From Pirellulales bacterium (GTDB taxonomy: Bacteria; Planctomycetota; Planctomycetia; Pirellulales; UBA1268): DNA of 64,000 nucleotides. A model generated the notes under the pieces. That model saw only the letters and a list, made by a program, of their open reading frames with translations. It did not search any database and was not told the DNA's origin. Every line of letters starts with the position of its first letter. Position 1 is the stretch's first letter. Below are positions 21,742 to 45,830 of the stretch, one piece after another. The translations under genes and the position numbers were made by a program. The stretch lies in NCBI GenBank assembly GCA_044369655.1, contig JBILWX010000004.1:7448-71447 (forward strand), read 5' to 3'.

Positions 21742-21821
21742 TTCGTGCGGCTCATTCCCGGTATCCTGTTCTTGAGAGAACCTTGGTCCCGATGATGGTC
21801 TCACAGATGACGGTCTCACAG

Positions 21822-22862: not shown

Positions 22863-22934
22863 CACGCTTTTCCTTTCCGACCGCAGACGTATCATCCCGC
22901 AGGCATGCCCCGCCGTTTTCGCCCGGAGATAACC

Positions 22935-29834: not shown

Positions 29835-32114
29835 GTGACGACTGTCATCGATCCGCCGTCGCCGGCACCCGCCTTCACGGCGCGGCCCGACGCCAGTCTC
29901 GACGTGGCCGCCCTGCAGGCGCTGCTCACGCGGCTCAGACGGCAGACTCGCGGCTGGATCTGGGTGGAGTCGTTGGCCTGGGTTGGGCTTGCGGCGGCGG
30001 CATTCTTCTGGGGATCGCTCGCGATCGACTGGTGCGTGGAGCCTCCGCGGTGGGCGCGGGCCGGACTGCTGGCGGTGGCGGCCGTCGGCCTGGCAATCCT
30101 CGTGGCGCGAAAGCTCGTTGGTCGGCTGTCCGCAGATCTCGGCGATCGGCACCTGGCAGTCGTCGTGGAACGGACGCATCCGTCGTTCCGCGACAGCCTG
30201 TCGACCACGATCGAACTGGCGGCCGGTCCGGCTGCCGACGTGAACCCCGCGCTGCTGGCCCGCACGGCCGCCGAAGCCAGGGCCCACCTCGGGCAGGTGC
30301 GGATGGAGCGGATTTTCCGCCGCCGGCAACTGGCGATGCTGGCCTTCGCGGCGGTCGCCGCCCTGGCGAGCGTCGCCGTGCTCGCGCTGGCCCAGCCCGC
30401 CGTTGCCGGTCTGTGGGTGCGCCGGTTGCCGCTGCTTGGCGACGAACTCTGGCCGCGGCGGGTGCGGCTGGTGATCGAGGATTTTCCCGCGGGCGTGCGA
30501 AAGGTCGCGCGGGGTAGCGACGTCGACGTGATCGTGCGCGCGCAGGCCGAGCGGATGCCGGAACTGGTCGACCTCCGCTGGCGGGTGGCCGCGGCCGAAG
30601 GGGTGGGCCTCGCGGCAGTCAGAGAACCGCGGGGCAACTGGCACACCGACCGCATGGGGGCGCGGGGCGGTGCCACGGCCGACGGCCAGACCTTCGGGCA
30701 CGTGCTGAAGGCGGTCAACGAGACTCTCGATCTGGAGATTCGGGGTGGAGATGCCCGGTTGCGACAGCTGCGGCTGCAGGTGCTCGAACCACCCGCATTG
30801 GAAACGCTCCGCATCACGGCGACACCACCCGCCTATCTGGGAAACGCGCCGCGGGAGATGCCCCCGGCGCGGATCGTGCAGATTCCTCGCGGCTCGGCGG
30901 TGGAGATCGCCTGCACCTGCACGAAGCCGCTCTCTGCCGCGACGATGGTGGCGGTCGCCGGTGGCGGTGGGGCATCGTCCACGGAGACGGTGTTGGCCAC
31001 ACTGCCGGCCGCCGACGCAACCGATGGCTCCGGGCAGCAGGCGGCAGCGGCCCGGACGATCACGGGCCGAATCGCCGAACTCGATGCCGATCGCTCCATC
31101 GTCGTGCGGTTCACCGACACCGACGGGCTCGCGCATCGCGAGCCCGTGACGTTCACGCTCGCCGCCCTTCCGGACGAGCCGCCCCAGGTGGCCATGCGGC
31201 TTCGTGGCATTTCGACTGCCGTCACGCCGCGGGCGCGGGTGCCACTGGTGGGCACGATCTCCGACGACCATGGTTTGGAGGGAGCGGCCGTCCGGCTGAA
31301 GCTGGCGGATGCCGCCGAGACATCCCTGCCGCTGGCCCGCGTGCGCAAGGGGGATGCGGTCGTGGAACTGCCCGCCGAGGCGGCGGAGCTTTTGTCACTC
31401 GAACCGCTCGGCCTTCCGGTCGGCCGCACGGTGGAACTGACTGTGACCGCCACCGACACCTGTACGCTCGCCGGCGGTCCCAACACCGGCACAAGCGATG
31501 TCTGGTCGCTGGCTGTGGTCACGCCGGAGGCACTCGTGGCGATGCTCGAAGCCCGCGAGATCATCCTCCGCCGGCGGTATGAAAGCTGCGTGGCCGATCT
31601 CACGCAGGCCCGCGACGGGTTTGCCGCGCCGCGACGCGTCGGCGGGGCCGAAGACGCGGAGGAGGGTGGGGCGGGTGGCGACCGTGCCGCCGAGGCCGCC
31701 GGTCTTGCCGCCGGTCTGGGTGAGGCCACCTCCCGGGCCATGGGCGAGACCAAGGAGCTTGCCGAAGCCTTCCGGGGCATCCGCCTTGAGTTTGACAACA
31801 ATCAGCTGCTCACGCCGGAGCTCGAGGCCCGGCTCATCGCGCAGATCGCCGATCCTCTCGCGGCGCTGGCCGCGCAGGATCTCCCCGCACTGGCGGCGGC
31901 ATGCCGGGCGGGGCAGAGCCGTGAGGAACTGCTGCGGCGAGCCGACCTGGTGCTGGCCCGGATGCGGGCGGTGCTCGATAAGATGATGGAGCTGGAGTCG
32001 TTCAACGAGGTGCTGGAGCTCCTGCGGGGCATGATCCGCACGCAGGAGCAGATCCGCGCCGAAACGCTCGAGCAACAGAAGCGACGGGCCAGGGAAGCGT
32101 TGGAGCGACCATGA
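29835..32114 (+). CDS. hypothetical double-TM membrane protein of the Bat-like operon
   Basis: GTG start. TM pair WVESLAWVGLAAAAFFWGSLAI and AGLLAVAAVGLAILVA. Coding bias is present. The stop overlaps the next start (ATGA at 32111-32114). Confidence 0.65.
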   Translation: MTTVIDPPSPAPAFTARPDASLDVAALQALLTRLRRQTRGWIWVESLAWVGLAAAAFFWGSLAIDWCVEPPRWARAGLLAVAAVGLAILVARKLVGRLSADLGDRHLAVVVERTHPSFRDSLSTTIELAAGPAADVNPALLARTAAEARAHLGQVRMERIFRRRQLAMLAFAAVAALASVAVLALAQPAVAGLWVRRLPLLGDELWPRRVRLVIEDFPAGVRKVARGSDVDVIVRAQAERMPELVDLRWRVAAAEGVGLAAVREPRGNWHTDRMGARGGATADGQTFGHVLKAVNETLDLEIRGGDARLRQLRLQVLEPPALETLRITATPPAYLGNAPREMPPARIVQIPRGSAVEIACTCTKPLSAATMVAVAGGGGASSTETVLATLPAADATDGSGQQAAAARTITGRIAELDADRSIVVRFTDTDGLAHREPVTFTLAALPDEPPQVAMRLRGISTAVTPRARVPLVGTISDDHGLEGAAVRLKLADAAETSLPLARVRKGDAVVELPAEAAELLSLEPLGLPVGRTVELTVTATDTCTLAGGPNTGTSDVWSLAVVTPEALVAMLEAREIILRRRYESCVADLTQARDGFAAPRRVGGAEDAEEGGAGGDRAAEAAGLAAGLGEATSRAMGETKELAEAFRGIRLEFDNNQLLTPELEARLIAQIADPLAALAAQDLPALAAACRAGQSREELLRRADLVLARMRAVLDKMMELESFNEVLELLRGMIRTQEQIRAETLEQQKRRAREALERP

Positions 32115-33838
32115 GACAGATCCTTCGACCGACCGCCTTCGTGCTCGCGGCGGCGACGTGCCTCGTGTTTCAGGCTCCGCCGCGTGGCACGGCTCGCGCC
32201 GCGGAGGAACCGGCCGCCAAGCCGGTGGTGGACGCTGCGCCGTCGGGGGGCAGTTTGGCCAGCCGTGAGCAGGAGCTCGCACAGCAGTTTCGTGATCTCG
32301 AGAAGACGTTTCTCCGACTGGCCGACCTGCTGGCCCCCAGCGATCCGCGGCGGGCCGCGGTGCTGCGGAGCGTGTTCGAGCAGGCGCGAACCGGGGAGGT
32401 GAGCGGCCGCCTCGACACGATCGTGCAATTGCTGGAGAAGGGGCAGCTTCTCAAGGCGGGTACGAGCCAGGGCAACGCACTCGACAAACTCCGCGAGTTG
32501 CTCGCGCTGCTGGAATCGGGGGATACCGACAAGCGGTTGGCCAGCGAAAAGGAAGAGGTGCGGCAGTTCCTGGGGCGGGTGTCAAAGCTGATCGCCCGAC
32601 AGCGCGACGTGGAGGGATCGACCGAGGCGGGGGCCAAGGAGGCTCAGCTTGCCGAACGCCAGGCGGCGCTTGCCGGGGAGGCAAACGGCCTCGCCGGCGA
32701 CATCGGCAGGTTTGCCAAGCGGATGGAACCAAAGGACGACACCGGCCAGTCGCCGCAAACGGCAGAACAGGAAAACAAATCGGCCACTGAATCGGAGTCG
32801 GGCAAGGAGTCGGGCAAGGAGTCGGGCAAGGAGTCGGGCAAGGAGTCGGGCAAGGAGTCGGGCAAGGAGTCGGGCAAGGAGTCGGGCAAGGAGTCGGGCA
32901 AGGAGTCGGGAAGCGGTGCGGAGCAGGATCAGTCGGCGGAAGACGCCCTGCCACCGGAGGCACTCGATGAACCAGAGAAGGCCCGTGCGCAGGAGGGCGA
33001 CGACGAGGCTTCGCGGGCCCGGCGGACCATGAAACGCCTCGCTGCCGCCGAGCAGCGGATGAGGAAGGCGCAGGAGAAGCTCGACCAAGCCAAGCGGCGC
33101 GATGCCAGGGAGGAACAGGAAAAAGCGATCGAGGAACTGGAAACGGCCCGGGCAGAACTGGAAGAAATCCTCCGTCAGATGCGGGAACAGGAGGTGGAGC
33201 GGCTCCTCGTGCAGTTGGAAACGAGGTTGCGGACCATGCTTCGCGCCCAACGGGCCGTGCTCGCCGGGGTTGAGAAACTGGCCGCCGAGGCACAGTCGCA
33301 GGCGGATCGGGAGCGGCAACTCGAGGCGGTGCGGCTGTCACGGGAGCAGAATGTCATCGGGAGCGATGCGGCCAAGGCGCTGACTCTGGTGCGGGACGAT
33401 GGCTCGGCGGTGGCGATTCCCGAGGCGCTCGAACAGGTCCGCGACGATTCGGGGCAGGCGGCTGTCCGGCTTGCCCGGGGGGACGTGGGCGGCACGACCC
33501 GTGGCATCCTGCAGGATCTGGTCACCAGCCTCGAGGAAATGATCGCTGCGCTGGAGAAGGCGCAGCGGGAGCAACAGGCGCGGCAGCAGGGGAATCAGGG
33601 CGGGCGTCCGGCCGAACCCGGCGAGCAACCGCTGGTCGACAAGCTGGCCGAGCTCAAGATGATCCGCTCGTTGCAGATGCGGGTGAACTCCCGCACGAAG
33701 CGGTTTTCCAAGCTGCTGGTCGACGGTGCGGAACAGGCGGAGGAGCCGGAGCTGCTCGACGCGCTGGAGCGGCTGGCGGAACGCCAGCGAAAAATCGAGC
33801 GGGCGGCCCACGACATCGTCACCGGCCGCACGGAGTGA
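32111..33838 (+). CDS. secreted acidic coiled-coil protein with (ESGK)n repeat
   Basis: Signal-like N-terminus MRQILRPTAFVLAAATCLVFQA. Long E/R/Q/A-rich heptad-like stretches. ESGK x9. No recognisable domain. Confidence 0.65.
   Translation: MRQILRPTAFVLAAATCLVFQAPPRGTARAAEEPAAKPVVDAAPSGGSLASREQELAQQFRDLEKTFLRLADLLAPSDPRRAAVLRSVFEQARTGEVSGRLDTIVQLLEKGQLLKAGTSQGNALDKLRELLALLESGDTDKRLASEKEEVRQFLGRVSKLIARQRDVEGSTEAGAKEAQLAERQAALAGEANGLAGDIGRFAKRMEPKDDTGQSPQTAEQENKSATESESGKESGKESGKESGKESGKESGKESGKESGKESGKESGSGAEQDQSAEDALPPEALDEPEKARAQEGDDEASRARRTMKRLAAAEQRMRKAQEKLDQAKRRDAREEQEKAIEELETARAELEEILRQMREQEVERLLVQLETRLRTMLRAQRAVLAGVEKLAAEAQSQADRERQLEAVRLSREQNVIGSDAAKALTLVRDDGSAVAIPEALEQVRDDSGQAAVRLARGDVGGTTRGILQDLVTSLEEMIAALEKAQREQQARQQGNQGGRPAEPGEQPLVDKLAELKMIRSLQMRVNSRTKRFSKLLVDGAEQAEEPELLDALERLAERQRKIERAAHDIVTGRTE
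32795..32910 (+). repeat. in-frame 12-bp tandem repeat GAGTCGGGCAAG, 9 perfect units plus 1 partial
   Basis: Read directly from the sequence. It encodes ESGKESGK... inside CDS 32111-33838. Confidence 0.95.
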
Positions 33839-33892: not shown

Positions 33893-34018
33893 GAGCGGCT
33901 GTCATAGCTCCTTCAGCCCTTTTTTCGCTCGGTCGGCAGCGTGCGGATATGATGGAGGGATATGATCCACGTCGTTCGTATCGCCGGCACGTCGACAGCC
34001 TTTGGAGGCCAGATTCGC

Positions 34019-35146
34019 ATGAAGTCGAGCCTGATTCCGCTGGCAGTGGTGGCCCTGCTGGTCGCCTGCGGTCAGGGCGTGATGGCCGCGCCGCTGCGAG
34101 AGCAGACGAACGTTGCCGGAGGGGATCAGGACCGGCAGCCGTCCGATTTGGACCGGCCGCCATCCTGGTCGATTCCTTCCCGCGCCGACCTGCGCCGCCG
34201 GATGATCGACTGGCTCGATAGAGTTGCTGCGTCCGGCACGTCGGCGGAGGCCGCCATCAGCTCGGCGCGGGAAGATTGGCCCGAGCAAGAGCCGGCCGAG
34301 TCCGCGGCTGATCTGCTCGATCACGTGATGGACTCCTTCTCGCGGGTCGATCCCCGCTGCGCCGCGCTGCAGCGCGGCGTCGTCGCGGAACGGGGGGCGG
34401 CCGGAGCGGCCCCGGTCGACGTGGGCTGGCTGACGGACACCTCCCTCGCCGCGTTCCAGCGGGATGCCGTCCGGTTGTGGCTGGGGCGGGAACGGGTCCG
34501 TCGTGACCGTTTCGACGAGGGGCTCGCCCTGCTGGCCGATCTCGACCCCGCCACGGCGGTCGATCCCGCCGCACTCCTTTTCCACCGCGCCGCCTGTCAG
34601 CACTGGCTGCTCGAGTCGGATCTCGCCGTCGAGACGCTCGACCGATTGCTGGAACGTTCCGGCGAGATTCCGGTGCGATACGAGCGGGTGGCGCGGCTGT
34701 TGCGCGCCGATATCGCGGCGCTCGAGGACGAATCGCTGGATCACATCGCGAGACGGATGCGCGACATCACCCGTCGCCTCGATCTCGGCCGTGCCGGCCC
34801 GAAGACGTTGGCGGTGCAGGATGGCGTGATCGAATCGCTCGACAAGATGATCAAGGCGATCGAGCAACAACAACAGCAGCAACAGAGCCAGTCGGCGAGC
34901 GGCGGCGCCGGCGGCGGCGGCCGCGGTGGCAACGGCACGCCGATGGACGACAGCCGGATCGCGGGTGGCAAGGGGCCGGGCGAGGTCACGAAGCGTGACA
35001 TTGGCGAGTCTGACGGTTGGGGCAAACTGCCGCCTCACAAACGCGAGGAGGCGCTGCAGCAGATCGGCCGGGAGTTTCCGGCCCACTACCGTGAGGCGAT
35101 CGAACAGTATTTCAAACGGCTGGCCTCCGGCGAGGAGAAACGGTAG
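34019..35146 (+). CDS. hypothetical secreted protein (poly-Gln/Gly linker)
   Basis: Signal peptide MKSSLIPLAVVALLVACGQGVMA. EQQQQQQQSQSASGGAGGGGRGG linker. Tail is GWGKLPPHKREEALQQIGREFPAHYREAIEQYFKRLA. Confidence 0.6.
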   Translation: MKSSLIPLAVVALLVACGQGVMAAPLREQTNVAGGDQDRQPSDLDRPPSWSIPSRADLRRRMIDWLDRVAASGTSAEAAISSAREDWPEQEPAESAADLLDHVMDSFSRVDPRCAALQRGVVAERGAAGAAPVDVGWLTDTSLAAFQRDAVRLWLGRERVRRDRFDEGLALLADLDPATAVDPAALLFHRAACQHWLLESDLAVETLDRLLERSGEIPVRYERVARLLRADIAALEDESLDHIARRMRDITRRLDLGRAGPKTLAVQDGVIESLDKMIKAIEQQQQQQQSQSASGGAGGGGRGGNGTPMDDSRIAGGKGPGEVTKRDIGESDGWGKLPPHKREEALQQIGREFPAHYREAIEQYFKRLASGEEKR

Positions 35147-36438
35147 TGCGGATCACGCTGTGTGTCACGCTGTCGATCGCTGCCATGCTTCCGGCTCGCG
35201 CCGGTGAAACCCAGCCGCCCGCTCCCATGCTCGTGGAAGTGGAACAGGGGGACGGCAGTCGCATGACGGGCCGGCTCGAGCAGATCGACGCGGCGGCGGT
35301 GCGCCTGGTCGACGACGCCGCTGGTGGCGGAACCCCGGTGTCGCTTGCGGGCGACCGAGTGCGGGCCGTGCAGCGGACCAATCGGGTGCAGGATGGCCCG
35401 CAGAAACTCGTGCTCACGCTCCTCGACGGGTCGTCCCTCGCGGGCGACGACTTTGCCTGGGATGGCGAACAGGCGGCGGTGCTCGTGCGGCCGGAGGGGC
35501 GGGTCGAACTGCCCATCGGCCGCGTCCGGTCGATCGCGTGGCGGCGCGAGGCCGCGACAGGCGACGCACCACCGGCTTGGCTGGGCACCCTGCCGGAGGG
35601 CACGGAGAGCGACCTGGTCGTGGTCGGAACCGACGAGAACCCCGAGTTCGTGGAGTGTGCCATCACGGGCGTGTCGGCCGAGAACGTGACGGTGGTGCTC
35701 GACGAGGAAACGATTCCTGTCAAGCGATCCAAGGTGATCGGCTTGCAGTGGCTGCGAGGTGAGCCGACCGCCGCCGAAGGCAAGACGGGGCGAACGCTCG
35801 TGGCCGTGACCGGGGGCGGGCTGCGGGCCAGCCGCGTGGACTGGTCGCCTGCCGGTCTCGTCGTCGATGGCGAGATCCGTCTGCCGGCCGGCATGTTGCT
35901 CGGCGTCGACTATGCCTCGGGCAGAACCGTGGGGCTCGCCAGTCTCAAGGCGGACACGGTGGTGGTGGAGCCGTGGTTTGGCGGGCTGGTCCGCACCGTC
36001 GGCGGCGCCGGCGGGCTGGCGACGTTTTTTGCACCGCGGTCGCTCGATCCCAAACCAGAAGCGGAGGCCCCGGCAGCGGGCGGCCGGGCGACGACCGCCG
36101 CCACGACCACGCCGGGCATCATCATGCGGCCACGGACCGTGGCTGTCTGGCGCTTGCCCGCCGACAGTCGGCGGTTTCGCACGGTCGTCGCGGCAGCGGC
36201 CGGACCGCAGGCCGCCGACCCCGTGGTGGTCGCCGTGGCGGTCGATGACCGCGAACTGTTCCGACGACAGCTCGGCGGCGCGGAGGGCTCTGCCGGCGGT
36301 CCGGAGCCGGATGGCGAGGGCATCCCGATCGATGTCGACCTGACGTCGGCACGGCGTCTGACCGTGACGGTTGATTTTGTGCCGGGCAACGGCGTGGGAG
36401 GAGCAGTACGGTTCACGAGCCCGGTTATCGAACGCTAG
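35146..36438 (+). CDS. hypothetical secreted protein, possible NPCBM-like C-terminal beta-sandwich
   Basis: The GTG start overlaps the previous stop (TAGTG). Signal-like N-terminus MRITLCVTLSIAAMLPARA. C-terminus has VVVAVAVDDRELF...IDVDLTSARRLTVTVDF...GGAVRFTSPVI. The domain call is tentative. Confidence 0.55.
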   Translation: MRITLCVTLSIAAMLPARAGETQPPAPMLVEVEQGDGSRMTGRLEQIDAAAVRLVDDAAGGGTPVSLAGDRVRAVQRTNRVQDGPQKLVLTLLDGSSLAGDDFAWDGEQAAVLVRPEGRVELPIGRVRSIAWRREAATGDAPPAWLGTLPEGTESDLVVVGTDENPEFVECAITGVSAENVTVVLDEETIPVKRSKVIGLQWLRGEPTAAEGKTGRTLVAVTGGGLRASRVDWSPAGLVVDGEIRLPAGMLLGVDYASGRTVGLASLKADTVVVEPWFGGLVRTVGGAGGLATFFAPRSLDPKPEAEAPAAGGRATTAATTTPGIIMRPRTVAVWRLPADSRRFRTVVAAAAGPQAADPVVVAVAVDDRELFRRQLGGAEGSAGGPEPDGEGIPIDVDLTSARRLTVTVDFVPGNGVGGAVRFTSPVIER

Positions 36439-36457: not shown

Positions 36458-38425
36458 ATGAACGGCATGAACCAGCCACCGACTTCCCGACGTATCGACT
36501 CAGCGTCGCGGCCACGTCGGCTGTCCGCTGCCGCAGCCTGCTGGGTGTGCCTGATAGCAGTTGCCACCTCGACGGCCATGGCGGTCGAGGTCGCGCCGGC
36601 GGTGCTCGATGCGCAGCAGCGGCGGATCGACGTCATGCAGCGGGCCGCGGCCACGGCGGTGGCGATCTTTGCAGGAGAGGCCGGAGGCGGTTCGGGCGTG
36701 CTCATCAGTCCCGACGGGTACGCCCTCACCAATTTCCACGTCGTGCAACCGGCCGGCGTGGCCATGAAGTGCGGACTGGCCGACGGTCGGCTCTATGACG
36801 CGGTGCTCGTCGGCCTCGATCCGACCGGGGACGTCGCGCTTGTCAAGCTCTTGGGACGCGACGATTTTCCCTCCGCCGAACTGGCCGACAGCGACGAGGT
36901 CGAGGTCGGTGACTTCTGCTTCGCTGCCGGCAACCCCTTTCTGCTCGCGACCGATTTCCAGCCGTCGATCAGCGCCGGCATCGTGTCGGGCACGAGACGC
37001 TACCAGTTTCCGGCCGGCACGATCCTCGAATACGCCGACTGCCTGCAGGTCGATGCGGCGATCAACCCGGGCAACTCCGGGGGCGGTTTGTTCGATGCGC
37101 GGGGCAGGATCATTGGCGTCAACGGCAGGGCATCGTTCGAGAAACGTGGTCGCGTCAACGTCGGCGTGGGCTACGCGATTTCAGCCAACCAACTGCGGAA
37201 CTTTCTCGGCCTGCTCAAGGGGGGGCGGCTCGTCGACCACGCCACGCTCGGCGCCACGGTCGCCACCAGCGCCGATGGTCGCGTGGTCGTGTCGGACATC
37301 CTCGAATCGTCGGACGCCTGGAAACGTGGGCTGCGGTATGACGACGAAATCGTGTCGCTGGCGGGACGCAGTGTTCGCACCGTCAACGCCTTCAAGAACG
37401 TCCTGGGCACGCTGCCTGCCGGCTGGCGGGTGCCGCTGGTGTATCGCCGCGGCGGCCGCCGCGAGGAGATTCTGGTCCGGCTGGCGGGGGTGCACACGGC
37501 CGCGGAACTGGCGAACATCGTCGCCGGAAAGCCGCAGAAGCCGACGGGCCAGCTGCCGGAGGAGGGGCCCGCCCCGGGCGACGGTGGCGGCCCCGACAAA
37601 GGCGATCGCCCCGCTCGGCCGCCGGAAACGCCCGCAGACGCACCACTGCCCGCTGCCGTCCGGCCGCTGTACGAGGCCAGACGAGGCTTCACGAACCACC
37701 ACTTCAACATCGTGGAACGTGACCGCGTGGCCCGGTTGATCGCCGCCGACGGCCGCGCTGCGTCGTTGCAGGGCCGTTGGATCATGACGGGCCGGTTGGC
37801 GACGGGCGAAGCATTTCGCATCGAACTCTCCGACAGCGAGGGGGTGATCGATCTTCCGACCGGAACGACCCGGGTCGATGCCACGGGCGAACTGGATGCG
37901 AATCCGAACCCTCCCGGCAGTGGCGGCATGCTGGCGGCACTGTTGCTGTGGAGACGGCTGGTGCGGGAGGGACCGGAGTCTCTGGGCCGCACGACCTACT
38001 GGGGTACGGTGCCGCTCGACCCACGCTCGCTCGGTGAGGCGGGTGGGCCACGACTCGTGGACATGCTCGAAACATCGGTCGCAGGCGTCGAGGCTCGCTT
38101 TGCCGTGGAGGCCGACGGGAGCGTGGCGGGTGTCGAACTGTGGACCGCCCCCGATGCCGACCCCTGCGAGGTCCGCTTTCGCGCAGCGCCGGCGGATCGG
38201 CCCGAGACTCGGCGCCAAACTCGGCCTCAGGATCTGCCCCGGAATGCACCGCAGGGCATGCCCGCCTCGATCGAAGTGCGGCATGGCAACGACGTCTTCG
38301 GGGTGTTCAACGTGGAGGGTGTGGTGTTGGATCGGGACGGAGATGACGCAGGCGGCGACGCTGCCAAGGCGCGGGCAGTGGCTCCCGAAACGGAGGCCGG
38401 GACATTGCCAGGAGGCGCTCCATGA
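36458..38425 (+). CDS. HtrA/DegP-like trypsin-fold serine protease with PDZ domain (catalytic triad intact)
   Basis: His in LTNFHVV, Asp in GDVALVKL, and Ser in NPGNSGGGLFD (Ser codon TCC at 37076-37078). A PDZ-like VVSDILESSDAWKRGLRYDDEIVSLAG follows, then an extra C-terminal region of about 270 aa. Confidence 0.85.
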   Translation: MNGMNQPPTSRRIDSASRPRRLSAAAACWVCLIAVATSTAMAVEVAPAVLDAQQRRIDVMQRAAATAVAIFAGEAGGGSGVLISPDGYALTNFHVVQPAGVAMKCGLADGRLYDAVLVGLDPTGDVALVKLLGRDDFPSAELADSDEVEVGDFCFAAGNPFLLATDFQPSISAGIVSGTRRYQFPAGTILEYADCLQVDAAINPGNSGGGLFDARGRIIGVNGRASFEKRGRVNVGVGYAISANQLRNFLGLLKGGRLVDHATLGATVATSADGRVVVSDILESSDAWKRGLRYDDEIVSLAGRSVRTVNAFKNVLGTLPAGWRVPLVYRRGGRREEILVRLAGVHTAAELANIVAGKPQKPTGQLPEEGPAPGDGGGPDKGDRPARPPETPADAPLPAAVRPLYEARRGFTNHHFNIVERDRVARLIAADGRAASLQGRWIMTGRLATGEAFRIELSDSEGVIDLPTGTTRVDATGELDANPNPPGSGGMLAALLLWRRLVREGPESLGRTTYWGTVPLDPRSLGEAGGPRLVDMLETSVAGVEARFAVEADGSVAGVELWTAPDADPCEVRFRAAPADRPETRRQTRPQDLPRNAPQGMPASIEVRHGNDVFGVFNVEGVVLDRDGDDAGGDAAKARAVAPETEAGTLPGGAP

Positions 38426-39456
38426 TCCGACATGCTGTTGCCATGGTGGCGATCGGCTTCGCCGTCAGCGGCTGGTTCACCGGCGGTGCAGGGCAGGTGG
38501 AAGCCGCAACGCCGCAGGAAACGATCGCGGGAGCGGCGCGGAAGATGGTCAAGATCCACGGCGCCGGCGGGGTGCGCGGTCTCGAGGCCTACCAGACCGG
38601 CATGCTCGTGTCTCCGGCAGGCCATATCGTCACCGTGATGAGCACCGTCCTCGATGCCGACGAACTCGATTGTGTGCTCGATGACGGTCGGCGGTATCGC
38701 GCCACGATGGTCGGTGCGGATCCGCGTCGCGCATTGGCCGTGCTCTCGATCGAGGGGGAGGAGTTGCCGGCGTTCACGCTCGCCGCCGGTGAGCCCGTGC
38801 CGGTCGGAACGAGGATCTTCGCCCTCTCGAATCTGTTCGGCGTCGCGGTGGGAGATGAGCGGGTCAGCGCCCAGCATGGTGTGGTGTCCGCGATGGTGCC
38901 GCTCGAGGCCCGCAGGGGCAGCTACGAGGTGCCCTATCGCGGCGACGTCTACATCCTCGACTGCACGACCAACAATCCAGGGGCGCCCGGAGGGGCGGTC
39001 GTCGACTGGCGGGGCCGCCTCGTCGGCATGCTCGGCAAGGAACTGCGGGCGTCCGAGAGCGGCATCTGGCTCAACTACGCCATTCCCGTGGAGGCGCTGG
39101 CCGCCGGCTACGCCGAGATCATCGCGGGTAAGGCGACTGCCGACGCCAGCCCGCAGCCGCCGGGTGCGGGCTTCGATCCGGCGGCGCTCGGCATGGTGCT
39201 GGTGCCCGATCTGCTCGATCGCACACCTCCCTTCATCGAGACGGTCGCCGCCGACTCGCCGGCGGCGCGGGCCGGCCTGCGGCCCGACGATCTCGTGATT
39301 GCCGTGGGGGGGAGGTCGGTGGCCTCGCGAGCGGCCGTGCAGCAGGCGCTCTCGGCACTCGCCGCGGGGGATTTGGTGCGGCTTTCGATCGTCCGCGATG
39401 GGGCGATCATGGAATGCGAACTCGGGCCGCGGCCCGAGGCGGGGAGGAAGCGATGA
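38422..39456 (+). CDS. HtrA-like pseudoprotease with PDZ domain (all three triad residues substituted)
   Basis: Same fold pattern, but VTVMSTV replaces the His box, RALAVLSI the Asp box, and NPGAPGGAVVD the Ser box (CCC Pro at 38986-38988). PDZ-like FIETVAADSPAARAGLRPDDLVIAVGG. ATGA overlap with the upstream gene. Confidence 0.75.
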   Translation: MIRHAVAMVAIGFAVSGWFTGGAGQVEAATPQETIAGAARKMVKIHGAGGVRGLEAYQTGMLVSPAGHIVTVMSTVLDADELDCVLDDGRRYRATMVGADPRRALAVLSIEGEELPAFTLAAGEPVPVGTRIFALSNLFGVAVGDERVSAQHGVVSAMVPLEARRGSYEVPYRGDVYILDCTTNNPGAPGGAVVDWRGRLVGMLGKELRASESGIWLNYAIPVEALAAGYAEIIAGKATADASPQPPGAGFDPAALGMVLVPDLLDRTPPFIETVAADSPAARAGLRPDDLVIAVGGRSVASRAAVQQALSALAAGDLVRLSIVRDGAIMECELGPRPEAGRKR

Positions 39457-41654
39457 CGCACCGGTTTATGATGGCGGCCGTGTGCCTCGCGATCGTGCAT
39501 GCCGTCGCACGCTTCGCGGCCGCCACCGATGACGTGCCGTTCGAGGAGGAGGCTGCGATCCGCGCGGCAGTGGAGCGGGTGGCGCCGTCTGTGGTGCGCA
39601 TCGAAGCGGCTGGTGTCTCGGCGGCGGCGCTCGCCGCGTCTGCGGAGGCCAGTCCTGCCAGCGGTCCCTCGACCGGCCTCGTCGTGGAGAAGGGGGGGTG
39701 GGTGCTCGCCACTTCGTTTGCCGTGCCACTGGATGCCGATGAGGCAATCGTCGTGCTGCCGTCTCCGGGCGTGGCCGACAAGGCAGTCGATTCCGCTCCC
39801 GATGATCCCGCCCTGAACGCTGCCGCAGGGCCGGATCGGGGGGCCGAAACCGGGCGGGCGCCAGGTGGCCGGCGGCGGGTGGCACGCGTGGTGGGCCGCG
39901 ATCTGGCCAGGTCGCTCGTGCTGTTGCGGATCGACGAGCCCGGCCTGCCGGCGGTGGCCGAATGGGCTCCGCGGGCGGAACTGGCGGTCGGCCAGTGGAC
40001 GATTGCCGTGGGCCGTGCCTGGCACCCCGACATTCCCAGCGTTGCCGTCGGCATCCTCTCGGCCACGAACCGTTCATGGGGCCGTTCCGTGCAGACCGAT
40101 GCCTCGATTTCGCCGGCGAACTACGGCGGACCGCTCATCGACATCAAGGGCCGTGTGATCGGCATCCTGGCGCCGTTGCCGGCGGACACAGCCGGGATGA
40201 ACCTGGGCACGGAACTCTACGACTCGGGCATCGGCTTTGCGGTGCCCCTGGAAGACATGCTCAGCGTGCTGCCGCGGCTCAAGAACGGAGAGACGCTGGC
40301 TCCCGGCGTGCTCGGCATCGGGTACCGGTCGCGTGATCCGTTCACGGGGGAGGCGCGGATAGCGACCTGCCGGCCAGGCTCCCCGGCGGCAAATGCCGGG
40401 CTGCGGCCGGGCGACCTGATCGTCGCCGCCGATGGCCGGCCGGTGACGCGGATCGCGGAACTCCGACATGTTCTCGCTCCGCACTATGCCGGCGACACCG
40501 TGAGCCTGACCATCGAACGCGGGGCCGGCTCGGCCGAACAGACTGCCGACGCGCCGGCCATCGAGGACCAACGGGAACGGCCGGCCCCCCCGGCCCGCAT
40601 CGAGGTGCGCGTCGAACTCGCCAGGTCGCTGCCACCATGGCGCAAGCCGATGCTGGGCATCGTGCCGGCACGTTCGGCTGGCCGGGATGCGCAACCGGCC
40701 GCCGTGCAGGTGGCATGGGTCTGGGCCGGGAGTCCGGCCGCGAAGGCCGGCATCGTGGCCGGTGACACGATCACTGCGGTTGTGCCGCCGGTGCCTGCCG
40801 GAGAGACGACCAACGAGGCCGACGCCGTGCCCGTCGAATCAGCCGCCGCACTCGCCGGCATCGTCGCCGGCACGGAGGTGGGCGGGCGGTTGGGACTCGT
40901 CGTTTCCCGCGCCGGCGCGAGGCAGACCATTTCGGTCGAGGCTGCCCCGATGCCGGTCGAACTGCCGGCGAATCTGGCGGACCAGCTCCCCGTCATCACC
41001 GGGAAGCAAGCCGCGCCCATGCCCGCGGGCGACGCCGCGACGGTCGAACGCCTGGAAGCCGCGGAAGTGGCCAAGCCGCCGCTGGCCGTGCTTCCGGTCT
41101 TGCCGCCCCGGGAACCGCTGGCAGTGATCATCTACCTCGACGTGCCGCGGGGCACGGTCGAAGAGGGGCAGGCCGCAGTCTGGAAGGCCGCTGCGGCCCG
41201 ACATGGCGTGGCGGTGATCCTGCCCGGCTCGTCCGATCCGCAGCGGTGGGGACGCGAGGATATTGCCGGCATCAAGCGGGCGGTGGCCACACTCGCCGCC
41301 AAGCGAACCATCGATCCAACGCGAATCGCCGTTGCCGGCCGCGGGGCAGGGGGGGCATTTGCGTGGTTGGTGGCCGAAGCGCTCGGTCCCGCCGTGCGGG
41401 GCGTGGCCCTCATCGACGCCACGCTCCCCCGGCAGGCTGCGATCGAGCCCGCCGAGCCCGGCCGATCGCGCTGGGTGTTGCTCGGGAGTGGGGCTGACGC
41501 CGCCGGAGTGGTGCAGTTGTCGCCCCGCGTGGAGGCCGACCGCCGCCGACTGGAGGAGGCCGGCTACCCGACGGCCACGCTGGCGGTAGAGCAGGGGGGC
41601 GGCGTGCCGGCAGCCCTGCTGGCCGCGTGGGTCGAGGCGTTGGGGCTGCTGTGA
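39453..41654 (+). CDS. HtrA-like pseudoprotease with two PDZ domains and a C-terminal esterase-like domain lacking the nucleophile
   Basis: LATSFAV replaces the His box, RSLVLLRI the Asp box, and SPANYGGPLID the Ser box (TAC Tyr at 40122-40124). PDZ-like segments are CRPGSPAANAGLRPGDLIVAADG and VWAGSPAAKAGIVAGDTITAV. The C-terminal IAVAGRGAGGAFAW occupies the place of a G-x-S-x-G elbow. Confidence 0.75.
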   Translation: MTHRFMMAAVCLAIVHAVARFAAATDDVPFEEEAAIRAAVERVAPSVVRIEAAGVSAAALAASAEASPASGPSTGLVVEKGGWVLATSFAVPLDADEAIVVLPSPGVADKAVDSAPDDPALNAAAGPDRGAETGRAPGGRRRVARVVGRDLARSLVLLRIDEPGLPAVAEWAPRAELAVGQWTIAVGRAWHPDIPSVAVGILSATNRSWGRSVQTDASISPANYGGPLIDIKGRVIGILAPLPADTAGMNLGTELYDSGIGFAVPLEDMLSVLPRLKNGETLAPGVLGIGYRSRDPFTGEARIATCRPGSPAANAGLRPGDLIVAADGRPVTRIAELRHVLAPHYAGDTVSLTIERGAGSAEQTADAPAIEDQRERPAPPARIEVRVELARSLPPWRKPMLGIVPARSAGRDAQPAAVQVAWVWAGSPAAKAGIVAGDTITAVVPPVPAGETTNEADAVPVESAAALAGIVAGTEVGGRLGLVVSRAGARQTISVEAAPMPVELPANLADQLPVITGKQAAPMPAGDAATVERLEAAEVAKPPLAVLPVLPPREPLAVIIYLDVPRGTVEEGQAAVWKAAAARHGVAVILPGSSDPQRWGREDIAGIKRAVATLAAKRTIDPTRIAVAGRGAGGAFAWLVAEALGPAVRGVALIDATLPRQAAIEPAEPGRSRWVLLGSGADAAGVVQLSPRVEADRRRLEEAGYPTATLAVEQGGGVPAALLAAWVEALGLL

Positions 41655-42409
41655 CACCGCCGCCATGGAGTCCAGGCGATCCGGCAGATCCCTGGCCAGT
41701 GGCGCATGGGGCGGATGACGAGTCTGCGGGAGCGCCGGCGGGCGACGGTCGCATCCGCATCGTGTACGCCGATGCCGATCTGGTCGTGGTGGACAAGCCT
41801 GCGGGAATGCCGAGCGTGCCGGCGCGAACGCCACTCGATCCACCCTGTGTCGCGGCGCACCTGCGTGCTGCATTCGGAGCCATCGAGGCGGTGCATCGGC
41901 TCGACCGCGACACGTCGGGCCTGCTCGTGCTCGCGCGGACGAGCCCGGCCCGGGCCGCGTTGGGCCGGGCGTTCGAGGCCCGGGCGGTGCGGAAACGATA
42001 CCAGGCGATCGTGCACGGCGGTCCGGACCGTGATGAGGGAATCGTGCACCTGCCGCTGGCGTCGGACCCGCTGCGGCCGCCTCGATCTCGCGTCGATCCG
42101 ATCCTGGGGCGGCCCGCCACGACACGCTGGCGGCTGCTCCGTGCCTCTTCCGGCGACGATGGAGGGTGGTCGCTGTTGGAACTGGAGCCGGTGACGGGCC
42201 GATCCCATCAACTCCGCGTGCATCTGGCCTGGCTCGGCATGCCGATCATGGGCGACCGGCTCTACGGGCCGGTGCACGCCGGGCAGGGGCCGCCGCCCGT
42301 TCGGCTCGGGCTCCATGCCACGTGGCTTGCGTTTCCTCATCCCGTCGACGGTCGATCGATCGAGGTGCGATCCCAGCCGCCCCGATGGTTCGCAGAGCAG
42401 GAACGCTGA
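41627..42409 (+). CDS. RluA-family pseudouridine synthase
   Basis: VVVDKPAGMPSVP, HRLDRDTSGLLVLART, YQAIVHG and HQLRVHLAWLGMPIMGDRLYG. Start is uncertain: GTG at 41627, or GTG at 41651 overlapping the upstream stop. Confidence 0.85.
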   Translation: MGRGVGAAVTPPPWSPGDPADPWPVAHGADDESAGAPAGDGRIRIVYADADLVVVDKPAGMPSVPARTPLDPPCVAAHLRAAFGAIEAVHRLDRDTSGLLVLARTSPARAALGRAFEARAVRKRYQAIVHGGPDRDEGIVHLPLASDPLRPPRSRVDPILGRPATTRWRLLRASSGDDGGWSLLELEPVTGRSHQLRVHLAWLGMPIMGDRLYGPVHAGQGPPPVRLGLHATWLAFPHPVDGRSIEVRSQPPRWFAEQER

Positions 42410-42415
42410 CTCCTC

Positions 42416-43753
42416 TCAGGCCGCAGGAGTCGGCTTCATCGCCGAGGGGCCTGCCTGCTGCCAATACCGGGAGAATCTGCCGAGATCCCTCACTCCCGAG
42501 CGATCGCAGAACCGCGGCCATGGCAGGAACGTTACCGGCAGCGGTGGTGCCGTGCCGGTATCAGTCGCCTGCACGGCGATGGCGGCGCGGCGTATGCGTG
42601 GGCAGGGCGTCTCGGCGAGCACGAGCCCATCGCAGCCGTGGGCCCGGGCCCGGGCCGGCAGGATTTCGAGAGGGTCGCCCAGCAGCACCTCGATCCCCGG
42701 CACGTCGGCCAGACAGTCGACGAGAAAGAGCAGCCGGTTCAGTGCGGGCCGTTCGTCTGCAATCCACTCCGGGTCGATGACAAAGAGCCTCGGCGCCTGG
42801 GGATAGGCCAGCACCGCCGGGCTCGTGGCGGCGGCCGAGTCGAGCGTGAGCCACACGAGTGGCCGGCTGAGCGCAGCGGCACGACCAGCACCGACGGCGG
42901 TGGGCTGCGGCCTGATCCGCAACGGCTCCCGTGGCGGCGGTTCGTCCGCGGCAAAACAGCGGGCCGCGAGTGCTTCATAGGAATCATCGAGAGGGCAGTT
43001 GCCACGCAGCCCACACGGCAGGCAGTGCAAGCCGTTGGTGAACGTTTCCAGATTTTCGCGGTTGAAGAGATACGGCTTGGCCGAGAAGGTGCCGGCCACC
43101 CACTGCCACGAGAGGTGGTTGCTGGCTGGATCTCCATCGAGCAGGTGGGAGAGAAACCAGTCGGCCCCCGCCTGCCACCGCACGCCGCGGACGTGCACCA
43201 GCCAGGACGCGAGCCACATCCGCTCGTGGTTGTGCAGCCAGCCGGTGCGGTGGAGTTTCTGCACGAACGCATCGATGCACGCCAGGCCGGTCTGTGCCGC
43301 GAGCACGTCCCGCGGCACGTGTTCGAGCCGAGGGGCACGGGGCGCTCGAGCGGGAGGTTCGAGCGGCTCGCGAATCCGGCTGCCCACGGCGGCGTATACC
43401 TGCTGCCAGTAGTCGCGCCAGCCGAGTTCCGAAATCAGTTTGGCGGCATCCTCGGGCCGTTCCACCCGTGCCAGGGCGGCGTCTCGGACCTCCGCCAGCG
43501 ACAGCACGCCGTGCCGAAGCCAGGGGGAGAGCTGCGTGACGGCTCCGTCCACATGGTTTCTCGTGCGTGCATAGGCTGCCGGATCGATCGCCGCCAGCCG
43601 CTCGAGGGCCGCGGCGCGACCGCCTGCCGCCCAGAGCGTCGCGGAGGCGTCGGTGCCGGTGCCGACCGTGACGCCACAGTCCGGAACGTCGCGGGCCAGG
43701 GCCGCCGCACGGTGTGACCGCGGCAGGCCAAGAATGCCGGTGAGATCGAGCAT
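42416..43753 (-). CDS. photolyase/cryptochrome-family FAD-binding domain protein with atypical domain order
   Basis: TQLSPWLRHGVLS, LGWRDYWQ, TGWLHNHERMWLASWLV and DGDPASNHLSWQWVAGTFS all start within about 45 aa of the N-terminus. A Cys cluster HCLPCGLRGNC follows. The ATG at 43753 has SD AAGGAG. Confidence 0.8.
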   Translation of the reverse strand: MLDLTGILGLPRSHRAAALARDVPDCGVTVGTGTDASATLWAAGGRAAALERLAAIDPAAYARTRNHVDGAVTQLSPWLRHGVLSLAEVRDAALARVERPEDAAKLISELGWRDYWQQVYAAVGSRIREPLEPPARAPRAPRLEHVPRDVLAAQTGLACIDAFVQKLHRTGWLHNHERMWLASWLVHVRGVRWQAGADWFLSHLLDGDPASNHLSWQWVAGTFSAKPYLFNRENLETFTNGLHCLPCGLRGNCPLDDSYEALAARCFAADEPPPREPLRIRPQPTAVGAGRAAALSRPLVWLTLDSAAATSPAVLAYPQAPRLFVIDPEWIADERPALNRLLFLVDCLADVPGIEVLLGDPLEILPARARAHGCDGLVLAETPCPRIRRAAIAVQATDTGTAPPLPVTFLPWPRFCDRSGVRDLGRFSRYWQQAGPSAMKPTPAA

Positions 43754-44084
43754 GGATCGACTCCTTTGGGGCGGGGGGAAAATCGTTCCCGCCGGCATCC
43801 ATTCTCCCGGACCGGCGGGAAAGCAAAAACTACACGCCGACCAGAACGCATCACCGCCTGGCCACGCTCTGGTTGTCGCAGCGATTTGCCGCTGCGCGTT
43901 TCGTGTGCAGGCAGCTGCGCGAAAACGGTGCGGCCAGCGCCGATTTCCCGGCTGCGGGTCTGCGGAGGAAAAAAATCTGATCGTAGAAAGTGTCCGTGTG
44001 ACGTCAAAAAAGCATTGAAAAAACAGTCTTTTCGTGTTTCGCCGGGGCGTGGTGTCGGCTGTGCAGGAATGAGCAGCCGGTCTT

Positions 44085-44100
44085 TGGCACGCCAGTTGCA
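44085..44100 (+). promoter_or_regulatory. sigma-54 (-24/-12) promoter upstream of amt-glnK
   Basis: TGGCACGCCAGTTGCA matches the consensus TGGCACG-N4-TTGCW exactly. It lies about 105 nt upstream of the amt start candidate at 44208, with an A/T-rich tract (about 43960-44040) upstream. Confidence 0.7.
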
Positions 44101-44207
44101 ACGCTAGCAGATCGTCATTGAAACGGTGCTCAGGGTGTGGCCTGGCGCCCGGCGAGGTGCGCGCTGCGGAGGCGCCCCTCGGCGGATTTCGTTCCTTCTG
44201 GAGTCGC

Positions 44208-45830
44208 ATGATGCGGTCTGTTCTTTCCTCCCAGTTCAGGGAGTTCGTGGCTGGTTGTCGTTGGCTGGCCGGCGGGTGGGGGCTTCAGTGCTCCGGTGTG
44301 CCGGTTCGATCACGGTCGGCAGGGCGGAGTTTCGTAACGGCGATGGCAGGGCTTGCCATCGTGATGTCGCTGGTGGCTCTGATGCCCCAGGTAGCATTGA
44401 CCGCTGAGGAAGCGGTCGCCGAACCGGCTGTCGCCGCGGCAGCCGATGCAGCGGCACCGGCCATGTCGACGGCCGACATGGTCAAGAACCTGTGGCTCGC
44501 CGCCGACACCGTCTGGGTGCTGGTGTGCGGCATGCTCGTGTTCTTCATGAATCTTGGATTCGGATGCGTCGAGTCCGGGTTCGCCAGAGCGAAGAACTGC
44601 GTCAACATCCTGTCCAAAAACTTCGTGGTGTTCGCGGCCACTGCGATCGGTTTCTGGCTGATCGGCTGGGATCTGATGTTTGGCAACGATGCCGGGGGGT
44701 GGATCGGTAACTCCGGCGCATTCATGGTCGGCGCGGCCGACAACAGTCCGGCCATCGGCGACCAGTATCAGGGCAGCTACGGTCCGATCAGTTGGACCAG
44801 CGTTCCGCTCTGGGCAAAGTTCTTCTTTCAGCTCGTCTTCGCCGGGACGGCCGCGACGATCGTATCGGGAGCGGTCGCCGAGCGGATCAAGTACCACTCT
44901 TTCATCATCTTCAGCTTTCTGATGGCGCTGGTGATCTACCCGGTCACCGGCCACTGGGTCTGGGGCGGCGGATTCCTCGGCCAGAAGGGATTCTGGGACT
45001 TCGCGGGCTGCACTGCCGTTCATTCGGTCGGCGGGTGGGCTGCCCTCACCGGCGCGCTCATTCTCGGCCCTCGGATCGGCAAGTATGCATCCGATGGCCG
45101 CGTCCAGGCGATCCCCGGCCACAACATGACAGCCGCCTTTATCGGCTGTCTCGTGCTGTGGTTTGGCTGGTTCGGCTTCAACCCGGGCAGCACGATGGGC
45201 GTGGCCGGCGACGGTGGTGCCTTGGCCGCTCAGGTGGCCGTGAACACCAACTCCGCCGCGGCGGCCGCGACCCTGACCGCCACGCTCGTCGCTTGGCTGC
45301 TGCTCGGCAAGCCTGATATCGGCATGACGCTCAACGGCTGCCTCGCGGGCCTCGTGGGCATCACGGCGAGTGCGGCGTACGTGACCGTGCCGGCCTCGCT
45401 CCTCATCGGAGCGATTGCGGGCGTGCTCGTGGTGTTCTCGGTCTTGTTCTTCGACAAGATTCGCGTCGACGATCCGGTCGGGGCGACCAGTGTGCACCTC
45501 GTCTGCGGCATCTTCGGCACGCTCTGCGTGGGCCTCTTCACGGCGACGGACCTCTCCGCCTCGAAGGCGATCGGGCCCTTCGGCGTCGCGGCGGTCGGCG
45601 GTCCGAAGGCCGGTCTGTTCTACGGCGGTGGCTTCGAGCAGCTGTGGATCCAGCTGCTCGGTGTGCTCGCCGTCGGTGCCTACGTGGTACCCGTGTCGGC
45701 GATCGCATGGCTCATCATCAAGGCGGTGGTCGGCCTCCGGGTCTCGCCGCAGGAGGAGATCGAGGGCCTCGACATCGGCGAGCATGGCAACGAGGCCTAC
45801 CACGGCTTCGTGATGGTTCGCAGCGAGTAA
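44208..45830 (+). CDS. amt: ammonium transporter (Amt family)
   Basis: DTVWVLVCGMLVFFMNLGFGCVESGF, AGTAATIVSGAVAERIK, FAGCTAVHSVGGWAALTGALILGPRIGKY and DDPVGATSVHLVCGIFGTL. Start is uncertain: 44208 has a GGAG SD. Alternative 44343 gives a signal-peptide-like N-terminus. Confidence 0.9.
   Translation: MMRSVLSSQFREFVAGCRWLAGGWGLQCSGVPVRSRSAGRSFVTAMAGLAIVMSLVALMPQVALTAEEAVAEPAVAAAADAAAPAMSTADMVKNLWLAADTVWVLVCGMLVFFMNLGFGCVESGFARAKNCVNILSKNFVVFAATAIGFWLIGWDLMFGNDAGGWIGNSGAFMVGAADNSPAIGDQYQGSYGPISWTSVPLWAKFFFQLVFAGTAATIVSGAVAERIKYHSFIIFSFLMALVIYPVTGHWVWGGGFLGQKGFWDFAGCTAVHSVGGWAALTGALILGPRIGKYASDGRVQAIPGHNMTAAFIGCLVLWFGWFGFNPGSTMGVAGDGGALAAQVAVNTNSAAAAATLTATLVAWLLLGKPDIGMTLNGCLAGLVGITASAAYVTVPASLLIGAIAGVLVVFSVLFFDKIRVDDPVGATSVHLVCGIFGTLCVGLFTATDLSASKAIGPFGVAAVGGPKAGLFYGGGFEQLWIQLLGVLAVGAYVVPVSAIAWLIIKAVVGLRVSPQEEIEGLDIGEHGNEAYHGFVMVRSE

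Follow-up and report, generated by a model that had tools for sequence, protein, structure and literature searches.

An HtrA-like protease with two pseudoprotease paralogues, conserved in two classes of Planctomycetota

Background

HtrA proteases are textbook homo-oligomers that are regulated by communication between identical subunits, and the dissection of this communication has needed engineered heterotrimers. Natural HtrA hetero-oligomers made of different paralogues are known as well, namely chloroplast Deg5-Deg8 and cyanobacterial HhoA/HhoB/HtrA, and in these all the partners keep the catalytic triad. The structures of Deg5 and Deg8 have been described (PMC3640471). Degenerated copies have also been studied: the MamE-dependent proteolysis needs MamO, a pseudoprotease derived from HtrA, in a non-catalytic capacity, and such pseudoproteases have arisen repeatedly (PMC4794232), while in plant DEG7 and yeast Nma111p an active protease domain shares the chain with a degenerated one, which mediates trimerisation in the case of DEG7 (PMC3194040). 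Finally, engineered HtrA2 heterotrimers have demonstrated crosstalk in trans between the PDZ and protease domains of different subunits (bioRxiv 10.1101/2021.10.04.462974). Here we analyze three adjacent HtrA-like genes, which we call P1, P2 and P3, in a stretch of 64,000 nucleotides (hereafter the window) from a Pirellulales bacterium belonging to the Planctomycetota (GenBank assembly GCA_044369655.1, contig JBILWX010000004.1, positions 7,448 to 71,447 of the forward strand).

An earlier note on this DNA had interpreted the locus as one active HtrA followed by two paralogues in which all the catalytic residues are replaced. That interpretation lacked the spread of the trio in Planctomycetota, the larger conserved module to which the trio belongs and the second, apparently dead, hydrolase-like domain of P3. 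Taking all the results presented below, we consider it probable that P1, P2 and P3 are ancient HtrA (MEROPS S1C) paralogues that work as one 1:1:1 periplasmic complex in which P1 is the only subunit that cuts; the geometry that we infer and favour for this complex is a hetero-trimer.

Results and discussion

Three HtrA paralogues encoded by overlapping genes

The three genes lie on the forward strand of the window, and the coordinates of their open reading frames (ORFs), the motif boxes and the codons TCC, CCC and TAC reported by the earlier note were all found to be exact. P1 (36458..38425, 655 amino acids (aa)) is the active HtrA-like protease and comprises a protease domain (~36665-37222, Pfam Trypsin_2, E = 7e-31) and a PDZ domain (~37223-37492, PDZ_2). 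P2 (38422..39456, 344 aa) is a pseudoprotease with a dead protease domain (~38539-39111, Trypsin_2, E = 6e-19) and a single PDZ domain (~39169-39441, PDZ_6, E = 6e-12). P3 (39453..41654, 733 aa), also a pseudoprotease, has a dead protease domain (~39555-40292, Trypsin_2, E = 1e-18), a first PDZ domain (~40293-40532, PDZ_2, E = 8e-20) and a second PDZ-like region (~40635-40952, a second PDZ_6 stretch). The Pfam matches to PDZ_2, PDZ_6 and PDZ are spread over the three proteins, in agreement with the PDZ domains claimed before for all of them, and each has at least one C-terminal PDZ domain, as is characteristic of S1C.

Searches with phmmer against solved DegP/DegQ chains gave E = 3e-38 for P1, 4e-25 for P2 and 2e-23 for P3, and P1 showed 30-35% identity to chains of the DegP/DegQ/DegS family together with a complete triad. 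The best NCBIfam match of the three proteins is the Do/DegP subfamily model, with scores (203 bits for P1, 115 for P2 and 146 for P3) below its cut-off of 416, and all three fall far under the cut-offs of the NCBIfam equivalogs DegP, DegQ, DegS, HhoA/HhoB/HtrA and MamE. We assign P1, P2 and P3, on the basis of their clan PA trypsin-like domain, to the HtrA/DegP family (MEROPS S1C) as homologues. Their N-terminal sequences were inspected by eye and assigned as signal peptides in P2 and P3 and as a signal-peptide-like N-terminus in P1, so that the three proteins look like they are exported to the periplasm.

At both junctions the stop codon of one gene and the start codon of the next overlap in an ATGA (38422..38425 between P1 and P2, and 39453..39456 between P2 and P3), as the earlier note had described. 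An overlap of four nucleotides between start and stop is possible in 55/74 of the P1-to-P2 junctions and in 52/74 of the P2-to-P3 junctions of related loci, which supports the co-production of the three proteins from translationally coupled genes and, with it, the stoichiometric co-production that had been proposed. P3 could alternatively start at an in-frame ATG located at 39414. The G+C content of the window is 65-72%, and the scan for promoters and terminators yielded only chance-level matches, located inside coding regions.

Replacement of the catalytic triad in P2 and P3

In the alignment with DegP the triad of P1 is formed by His94 (CAC, 36737-36739), Asp125 (GAC, 36830-36832) and Ser207 (TCC, 37076-37078), and the motif boxes aligned to DegP/DegQ are TNFHVV, GDVALV and GNSGG. 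The alignments with PDB sequences place at the same three positions Ser74 (AGC, 38641-38643), Ala104 (GCA, 38731-38733) and Pro189 (CCC, 38986-38988) in P2, and Phe89 (TTT, 39717-39719), Ser154 (TCG, 39912-39914) and Tyr224 (TAC, 40122-40124) in P3. The phmmer alignments agree with the interpretation of one active HtrA accompanied by two paralogues that have all the catalytic residues replaced.

These replacements are characteristic of the two protein groups. While the His, Asp and Ser residues of P1 are kept in 64/64 orthologues from syntenic loci, the 120 best homologues of P2 (64-99% identical, drawn from a collection of 5.8 billion proteins), which make 121 sequences once that of the window is counted, have Ser in the His column in 121/121 cases (and in 75/75 of the syntenic loci), Glu in the Asp column in 112, the Ala of the window being a rare variant, and Pro (101) or Ala (18) in the Ser column. 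For P3, the 120 best homologues (51-99% identical), again 121 sequences with that of the window, have Phe in the His column and Tyr in the Ser column without exception (121/121 for both, and 68/68 for both in the syntenic loci), the Asp column is Gly in 118 sequences, and the motif SPANYGGPL is nearly invariant. The Phe and Tyr pair of P3 also persists in Phycisphaerae and in the fusion proteins described below. The recurrence of the same replacements in hundreds of orthologues goes far beyond what is expected by chance.

Extending the analysis of P2 to more divergent sequences, a HMMER pass over 1.84 billion cluster representatives (50% identity) identified 291 proteins at E <= 1e-30. No His was found at the triad position in the best 150 of these 291 (0/150), and the residues observed at the level of the family, S/T/N/G/A in the His column and P/A/Q/K/E in the Ser column, are all non-catalytic. 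An alignment of 56 diverse P2-family sequences contains no His or Ser column that is invariant or nearly so, and 127 P3-family sequences contain no conserved His; the only polar residues widely conserved in P2 and P3 are structural. There is hence no relocated triad, which answers the possibility, raised by the earlier note, of an intact triad placed elsewhere in P2 or P3. A shifted nucleophile in P2 was considered and rejected: most orthologues carry a Ser immediately ahead of the canonical nucleophile position (NPG-S-P-GG), but the window has NPG-A-P-GG (38974-38994) and the His is missing everywhere, so that this Ser is dispensable rather than a hidden nucleophile. Judged from their sequences, P2 and P3 are true pseudoproteases, that is, homologues of the family that are not peptidases. 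They retain the HtrA fold, and conservation within them is highest in the glycine-rich L1 loop (NPG-x-x-GG in P2 and SPANYGG in P3), the surrounding cleft and the PDZ domains.

Purifying selection and distribution of the trio

One genome of each GTDB species was scanned with a 12-sequence alignment of P2. At least 572 stretches encoding a relative of P2 were detected, and the best 80 of them were used in the synteny analysis and in the estimation of the ratio between non-synonymous and synonymous substitution rates (dN/dS). These 80 loci all come from metagenome-assembled genomes of Planctomycetota, mostly Pirellulales or Planctomycetia, with a few carrying implausible labels. The order P1-P2-P3 is held in all of them wherever the contig allows. 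Ten loci (L003, L004, L021, L026, L027, L034, L049, L057, L061 and L062) are labelled as 'Candidatus Kuenenia stuttgartiensis' or 'Chitinophagaceae' despite having an operon of the Pirellulales type with 60-83% protein identity, and these contigs are probably mis-binned or mislabelled. In the case of the divergent family members, the sole organism name recovered in the cluster look-ups was Thermoguttaceae (Planctomycetota).

The dN/dS values were estimated by the Nei-Gojobori method in 29 pairs of close orthologues with dS values for P2 ranging between 0.05 and 0.5, pairs with dS around 1 being left out because they are saturated and inflate ω. For the whole genes the values were 0.107 in P1, 0.123 in P2 and 0.177 in P3, compared with 0.208 in the neighbouring housekeeping gene RluA. 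When we restricted the analysis to the protease domains the values were 0.042 for P1, 0.080 for the dead domain of P2 and 0.134 for the dead domain of P3; the C-terminal extension of P1 gave 0.154. P1, P2 and P3 are all under strong purifying selection, and the two dead copies have values near that of the active copy. No frameshifts in P2 or P3 were found in the 80 syntenic loci. Whether the dead copies are under purifying selection, a point on which the earlier note had made its interpretation depend, was therefore answered affirmatively, and the decay of P2 and P3 as pseudogenes is refuted by the dN/dS values of 0.12-0.18, by the absence of frameshifts in the 80 loci and by the invariant replacement residues.

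Natural fusions and age of the duplications

About 40 of the cluster representatives, with lengths of 680-1080 aa, combine a P1-like domain that keeps its triad with a dead P2-like domain placed after it, and one further representative is a P2-P3 fusion. The protein P0288 (1071 aa) is a triple fusion of P1, P2 and P3 in the order active-dead-dead, and together with the 103 relatives returned by a search with its sequence it forms a fusion set of 104 proteins. The P1-P2 architecture is found in 99 of the 104; the P1 part has His, Asp and Ser in 103/104, and none of the P2 parts has the His. Two additional triple fusions were identified, P0393 with 1227 aa and 43% identity, and P0410 with 1203 aa and 37% identity. 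The three triple fusions are 37-43% identical to one another, come from three different sequencing runs and are each encoded by a single uninterrupted ORF. The gene for P0410 is preceded by one that matches NPCBM, and the fragment 5' of P0288 has an NPCBM-like end.

Where a source is named, it is Phycisphaerae, and in Phycisphaerae P1 and P2 are joined as one polypeptide (99 examples). Every P1, P2 or P3 domain of Phycisphaerae matches its own Pirellulales paralogue best, which places both duplications and the loss of catalysis before the split between Planctomycetia and Phycisphaerae. The trio is conserved in these two classes of Planctomycetota.

Models for the assembly of the trio

Because fusions recur (99/104 with P1-P2, three with P1-P2-P3 and one with P2-P3), we infer that a physical hetero-complex is the most economical interpretation of the trio. 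We hypothesize that the three paralogues would be exported to the periplasm and produced in fixed proportion, and that they would assemble there into a 1:1:1 hetero-trimer of three different protease domains having a single active site. HtrA proteases being built from trimeric units of protease domains, the simplest architecture would be a hetero-trimer that carries a single active site. The dead subunits would contribute interfaces of the trimer, clefts for the binding of peptides and PDZ sensors, and would either hold and present the substrates or relay activation to P1 through PDZ and loop crosstalk between subunits. That the L1 loop, the cleft and the PDZ domains are the most conserved parts of the dead subunits suggests that P2 and P3 still bind peptides. 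The complex would be the terminal part of an envelope module that also includes a coiled-coil protein (U1), a TPR-like lipoprotein (U2) and an NPCBM-like protein (U3), all described in a later section. In its most specific form, which we put forward tentatively and to which we give somewhat less than an even chance, the model is that of an asymmetric HtrA hetero-trimer with a pseudo-threefold axis, built of one catalytic and two different dead capture or sensor subunits, established before the split of the two classes, sometimes encoded as a single chain and acting as the proteolytic end of a MoxR/VWA-linked envelope machine. To our knowledge, there is no natural HtrA with exactly one active site in its basic trimer.

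Prediction of the structure of the 1071-aa triple fusion P0288 with AlphaFold2 gave a mean predicted local distance difference test (pLDDT) of 83.6 and a predicted template modelling score (pTM) of 0.81, with only the linkers being disordered. The input alignment consisted of 52 fusion sequences only, its third domain being covered by 3 sequences, and orthologues of P3 and P2 were left out because MAFFT misaligned those of P3 to the first two domains. In this model the three protease-PDZ units (six domains) are predicted to take one confident mutual arrangement rather than that of beads on a string, which is consistent with an intramolecular pseudo-trimer and is no demonstration of one. Foldseek comparisons with PDB chains superposed all three units of the fusion on DegP, DegQ and Rv0983, with TM values of up to 0.83 (target-normalised), so that each unit is a normal HtrA protomer. 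The model of P1 from the window had a pLDDT of 85.9 and a pTM of 0.85.

Several points weigh against the hetero-trimer. The fused degenerate domain of DEG7 serves for homotrimerisation and not for the formation of a pseudo-trimer (PMC3194040), and physical contact between MamO and MamE was not detected (PMC4794232). The signal peptides were judged by eye. A pTM of 0.81 is no proof of a trimer-like packing. The third domain rests on 3 sequences, and Foldseek returns for the models only matches to single HtrA or trypsin-like units, being silent on the geometry between domains. Finally, L083 and L084 lack the link to the MoxR/VWA genes, and both this link and the substrate rest on the gene neighbourhood.

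The main rival to the hetero-trimer, unlikely in our view and nevertheless the strongest of those considered, proposes that each paralogue is homotrimeric and that the three rings associate or stack, so that the fused chains would form (P1P2P3)3 with three active and six dead sites. Typical HtrAs are homotrimeric, as is well established, and the fusions fix the stoichiometry and not the geometry. DEG7, moreover, trimerises via its degenerated protease domains (PMC3194040). Against such stacking, AlphaFold2 arrives at a packed arrangement of the three units within one chain (pTM 0.81) without partner chains, and exactly three paralogues at 1:1:1 match the three positions of the HtrA trimer, neither argument being decisive.

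The repeated covalent fusion of P1-P2 and P1-P2-P3 in independent lineages, together with the strict gene order and the conserved overlaps, would be hard to explain if P2 and P3 did not bind P1 and acted in the same pathway as protease-dead holdase chaperones or PDZ adaptors, the operon reflecting then a shared process. We regard this explanation as improbable, even though protease-dead DegP (S210A) is well established to keep its chaperone activity and MamO activates MamE with no interaction having been detected between them (PMC4794232).

Lower still is the probability that P2, P3 or both have been repurposed to bind a metal, in the manner of MamO, or a glycan ligand, with no role in proteolysis. 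The dead protease domain of MamO does bind transition metals (PMC4794232), and a putative carbohydrate-binding protein of NPCBM-like type is always adjacent to the trio; however, neither the P2 nor the P3 family has a conserved His pair, P2 and P3 have no TauE domain, and the L1 glycine-rich loop and the PDZ domains count among the regions that have changed least. A MamO-like metal site in P2 or P3 was rejected given the lack of any TauE match or conserved His and the 37 bits that the NCBIfam MamO model gives to P2 compared with a cut-off of 800. The idea that P2 and P3 are decaying pseudogenes or hide a cryptic catalysis through other residues is scarcely credible, as it has nothing but the missing triad in its favour, decay is refuted, only structural polar residues are widely conserved and the triad columns vary at the family level among non-catalytic residues.

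Additional domains of P1 and P3

Outside the protease and PDZ regions, P1 has a C-terminal extension (37655..38332, forward strand, residues ~400-625) predicted to be a folded alpha+beta domain with AlphaFold2 pLDDT values mostly above 90. The extension has no match in Pfam, and the Foldseek search with the whole model yielded nothing on its fold. It is found in the long P1-P2 fusions (~870-990 aa) and missing in the short ones (~700 aa).

P3 ends in a putative alpha/beta-hydrolase-like domain (41085..41651, forward strand, residues ~545-733), an assignment of fold that rests on weak matches to an NCBIfam PHA-depolymerase-type esterase model (E = 3e-7) and to Pfam Abhydrolase_3 (E = 0.003). 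Its nucleophile elbow reads G-R-G-A-G (41337-41351, forward strand) and not G-x-S-x-G, and weak alignments with PDB sequences put Gly at the position of the Ser nucleophile. This Gly is kept in 118/121 orthologues, and residues 545-733 contain no conserved His in the 121 orthologues. The tail of P3 is probably a second dead hydrolase domain and, given the retention of the elbow Gly and the lack of a conserved His, P3 may be a double pseudoenzyme. The hydrolase-like tail is absent from P3 of Phycisphaerae.

Gene neighbourhood of the trio

In the window the trio terminates a long Bat-like operon whose genes are all on the forward strand. It includes a MoxR AAA+ protein (22905-23981, Pfam AAA_3, E = 4e-63), a DUF58 protein (23947-24846, E = 7e-47), a protein with a BatA N-terminal domain (24862-27186, Pfam BatA, E = 1e-11), a VWA protein (27207-29768, Pfam VWA, E = 2e-5) and the co-oriented gene U0 (29835-32114), which lies between VWA and U1. 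U1 (32111..33838) encodes an exported, acidic coiled-coil protein of 575 aa with orthologues in L082 and L083 in addition to the syntenic loci (dN/dS 0.13), and contains an internal (SGKE)n repeat (32794-32910) that is a perfect 12-nucleotide tandem repeat of 9.8 copies. U2 (33962..35146), identified also by its synteny (dN/dS 0.18), encodes 394 aa with a lipoprotein-like N-terminus (LLVAC); it matches its counterparts in L082 and L083 with blastp E = 1e-17, and the counterpart in L082, a Phycisphaerae locus, is TPR-like by a TPR_16 match. U3 (35146..36438) encodes an exported protein of 430 aa with a divergent NPCBM-like C-terminal domain (residues 324-413), a weak match (E = 0.069), and is directly upstream of P1 in every locus long enough; the gene occupying its position in Phycisphaerae matches NPCBM with E = 1.4e-27 (L082 8518-9714; L086 500-1681).

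Searches with tblastn using the proteins of the window recovered the co-linear order VWA, U0, U1, U2, U3, P1, P2, P3, often followed by RluA, in every sufficiently long locus, and VWA and U0 precede U1 in all the Pirellulales loci that are long enough and in L082, but not in L083 or L084. A 4.85-Mb Phycisphaerae contig contains BatA, VWA, U0, U1, U2 (TPR-like), an NPCBM protein, the P1P2 fusion and a short P3 of 365 aa that retains the Phe and Tyr, while another lineage has the module from U1 to P3 without Bat genes. The conserved core comprises U1, U2, the NPCBM-like U3, P1, P2 and P3, usually located behind a MoxR/DUF58/BatA/VWA operon. These constant neighbours point to a process associated with the envelope, and the substrate of the trio is probably a component or a client of the MoxR/DUF58/BatA/VWA-linked system. 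The presence of the NPCBM-like U3 hints that the module may deal with a glycan-bearing component of the envelope.

Other genes were observed on both sides of the operon. Directly 5' of MoxR are those for a 1838-aa PQQ beta-propeller protein (16225-21741) and for a prenyltransferase/terpene-cyclase-like protein (21783-22862); MoxR matches also a 'bpMoxR' model (7e-11), and the layout recalls the MoxR-vWA-beta-propeller ternary systems. On the 3' side of the trio (41627-45830) there are an RluA-type pseudouridine synthase gene, a photolyase-like gene on the reverse strand and an ammonium transporter gene, and the 92%-identical relative P0002 has the same downstream genes in the same order, then P-II. 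In Pirellulales the trio often has RluA next to it, an adjacency that Phycisphaerae lack. The RluA ORF starts at a GTG (41627) and overlaps P3 by 28 nucleotides; the alignments with orthologues only start at about residue 40, so that the real start codon probably lies farther downstream.

Significance and comparison with known systems

If the proposed complex is real, the trio would naturally combine a single live subunit with two dead ones and thus be a system to examine the non-catalytic contribution of a neighbouring subunit, for which the natural two- and three-domain fusions offer ready material. It would also be a clear bacterial addition to the pseudoenzymes that regulate active paralogues. 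The six-gene periplasmic module, present in two classes of Planctomycetota and usually attached to the poorly understood MoxR/BatA/VWA operon, is a target for genetics. The names 'serine protease Do' and 'S1C family serine protease', under which these three genes are annotated, misdescribe two of them. Our literature searches, full text included, returned no description of the trio or of the Planctomycetota MoxR/BatA module. The earlier note had called the arrangement unusual for bacterial HtrAs, which is a fair statement, although precedents exist in MamO (PMC4794232) and in the degenerate domain of DEG7 (PMC3194040).

Compared with canonical DegP, DegQ and DegS, the trio has in common the fold, the PDZ domains and the periplasmic location, and it differs in the extra domain of ~230 aa of P1 and in the extra PDZ-like region and hydrolase-like tail of P3. 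In Deg5-Deg8 and HhoA/HhoB/HtrA all the partners have the triad, whereas two of the three members of the trio are catalytically dead. The pair MamE and MamO resembles the trio in that bacterial HtrA paralogues share one cluster in which one is active and one is retained with a degenerate triad. However, MamO carries both a TauE transporter domain and a surface di-histidine site for metal, and plays a role in magnetite nucleation, while P2 and P3 lack TauE and conserved His residues; and contact between MamE and MamO went undetected, whereas the partners of the trio have been repeatedly fused, include two dead paralogues and stand in a MoxR/VWA context.

The architecture of DEG7 and Nma111p, with active and degenerate HtrA domains and PDZ domains, is that of the P1-P2 fusions of Phycisphaerae. 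These proteins are, in contrast, eukaryotic and intracellular and have one dead domain, while the window has separate, coupled genes and a third paralogue that is degenerated in a different manner. By its gene organization the trio of the window is an analogue of the DEG7/Nma111-type tandem HtrA and, being encoded by separate genes, not a member of it. The nearest precedents are MamO, DEG7 and the engineered HtrA2, and what sets the trio apart from them is that it has two dead paralogues distinct from each other, that it is conserved in both Planctomycetia and Phycisphaerae, and that it occurs naturally as double and triple fusions in keeping with the three positions of the trimer.

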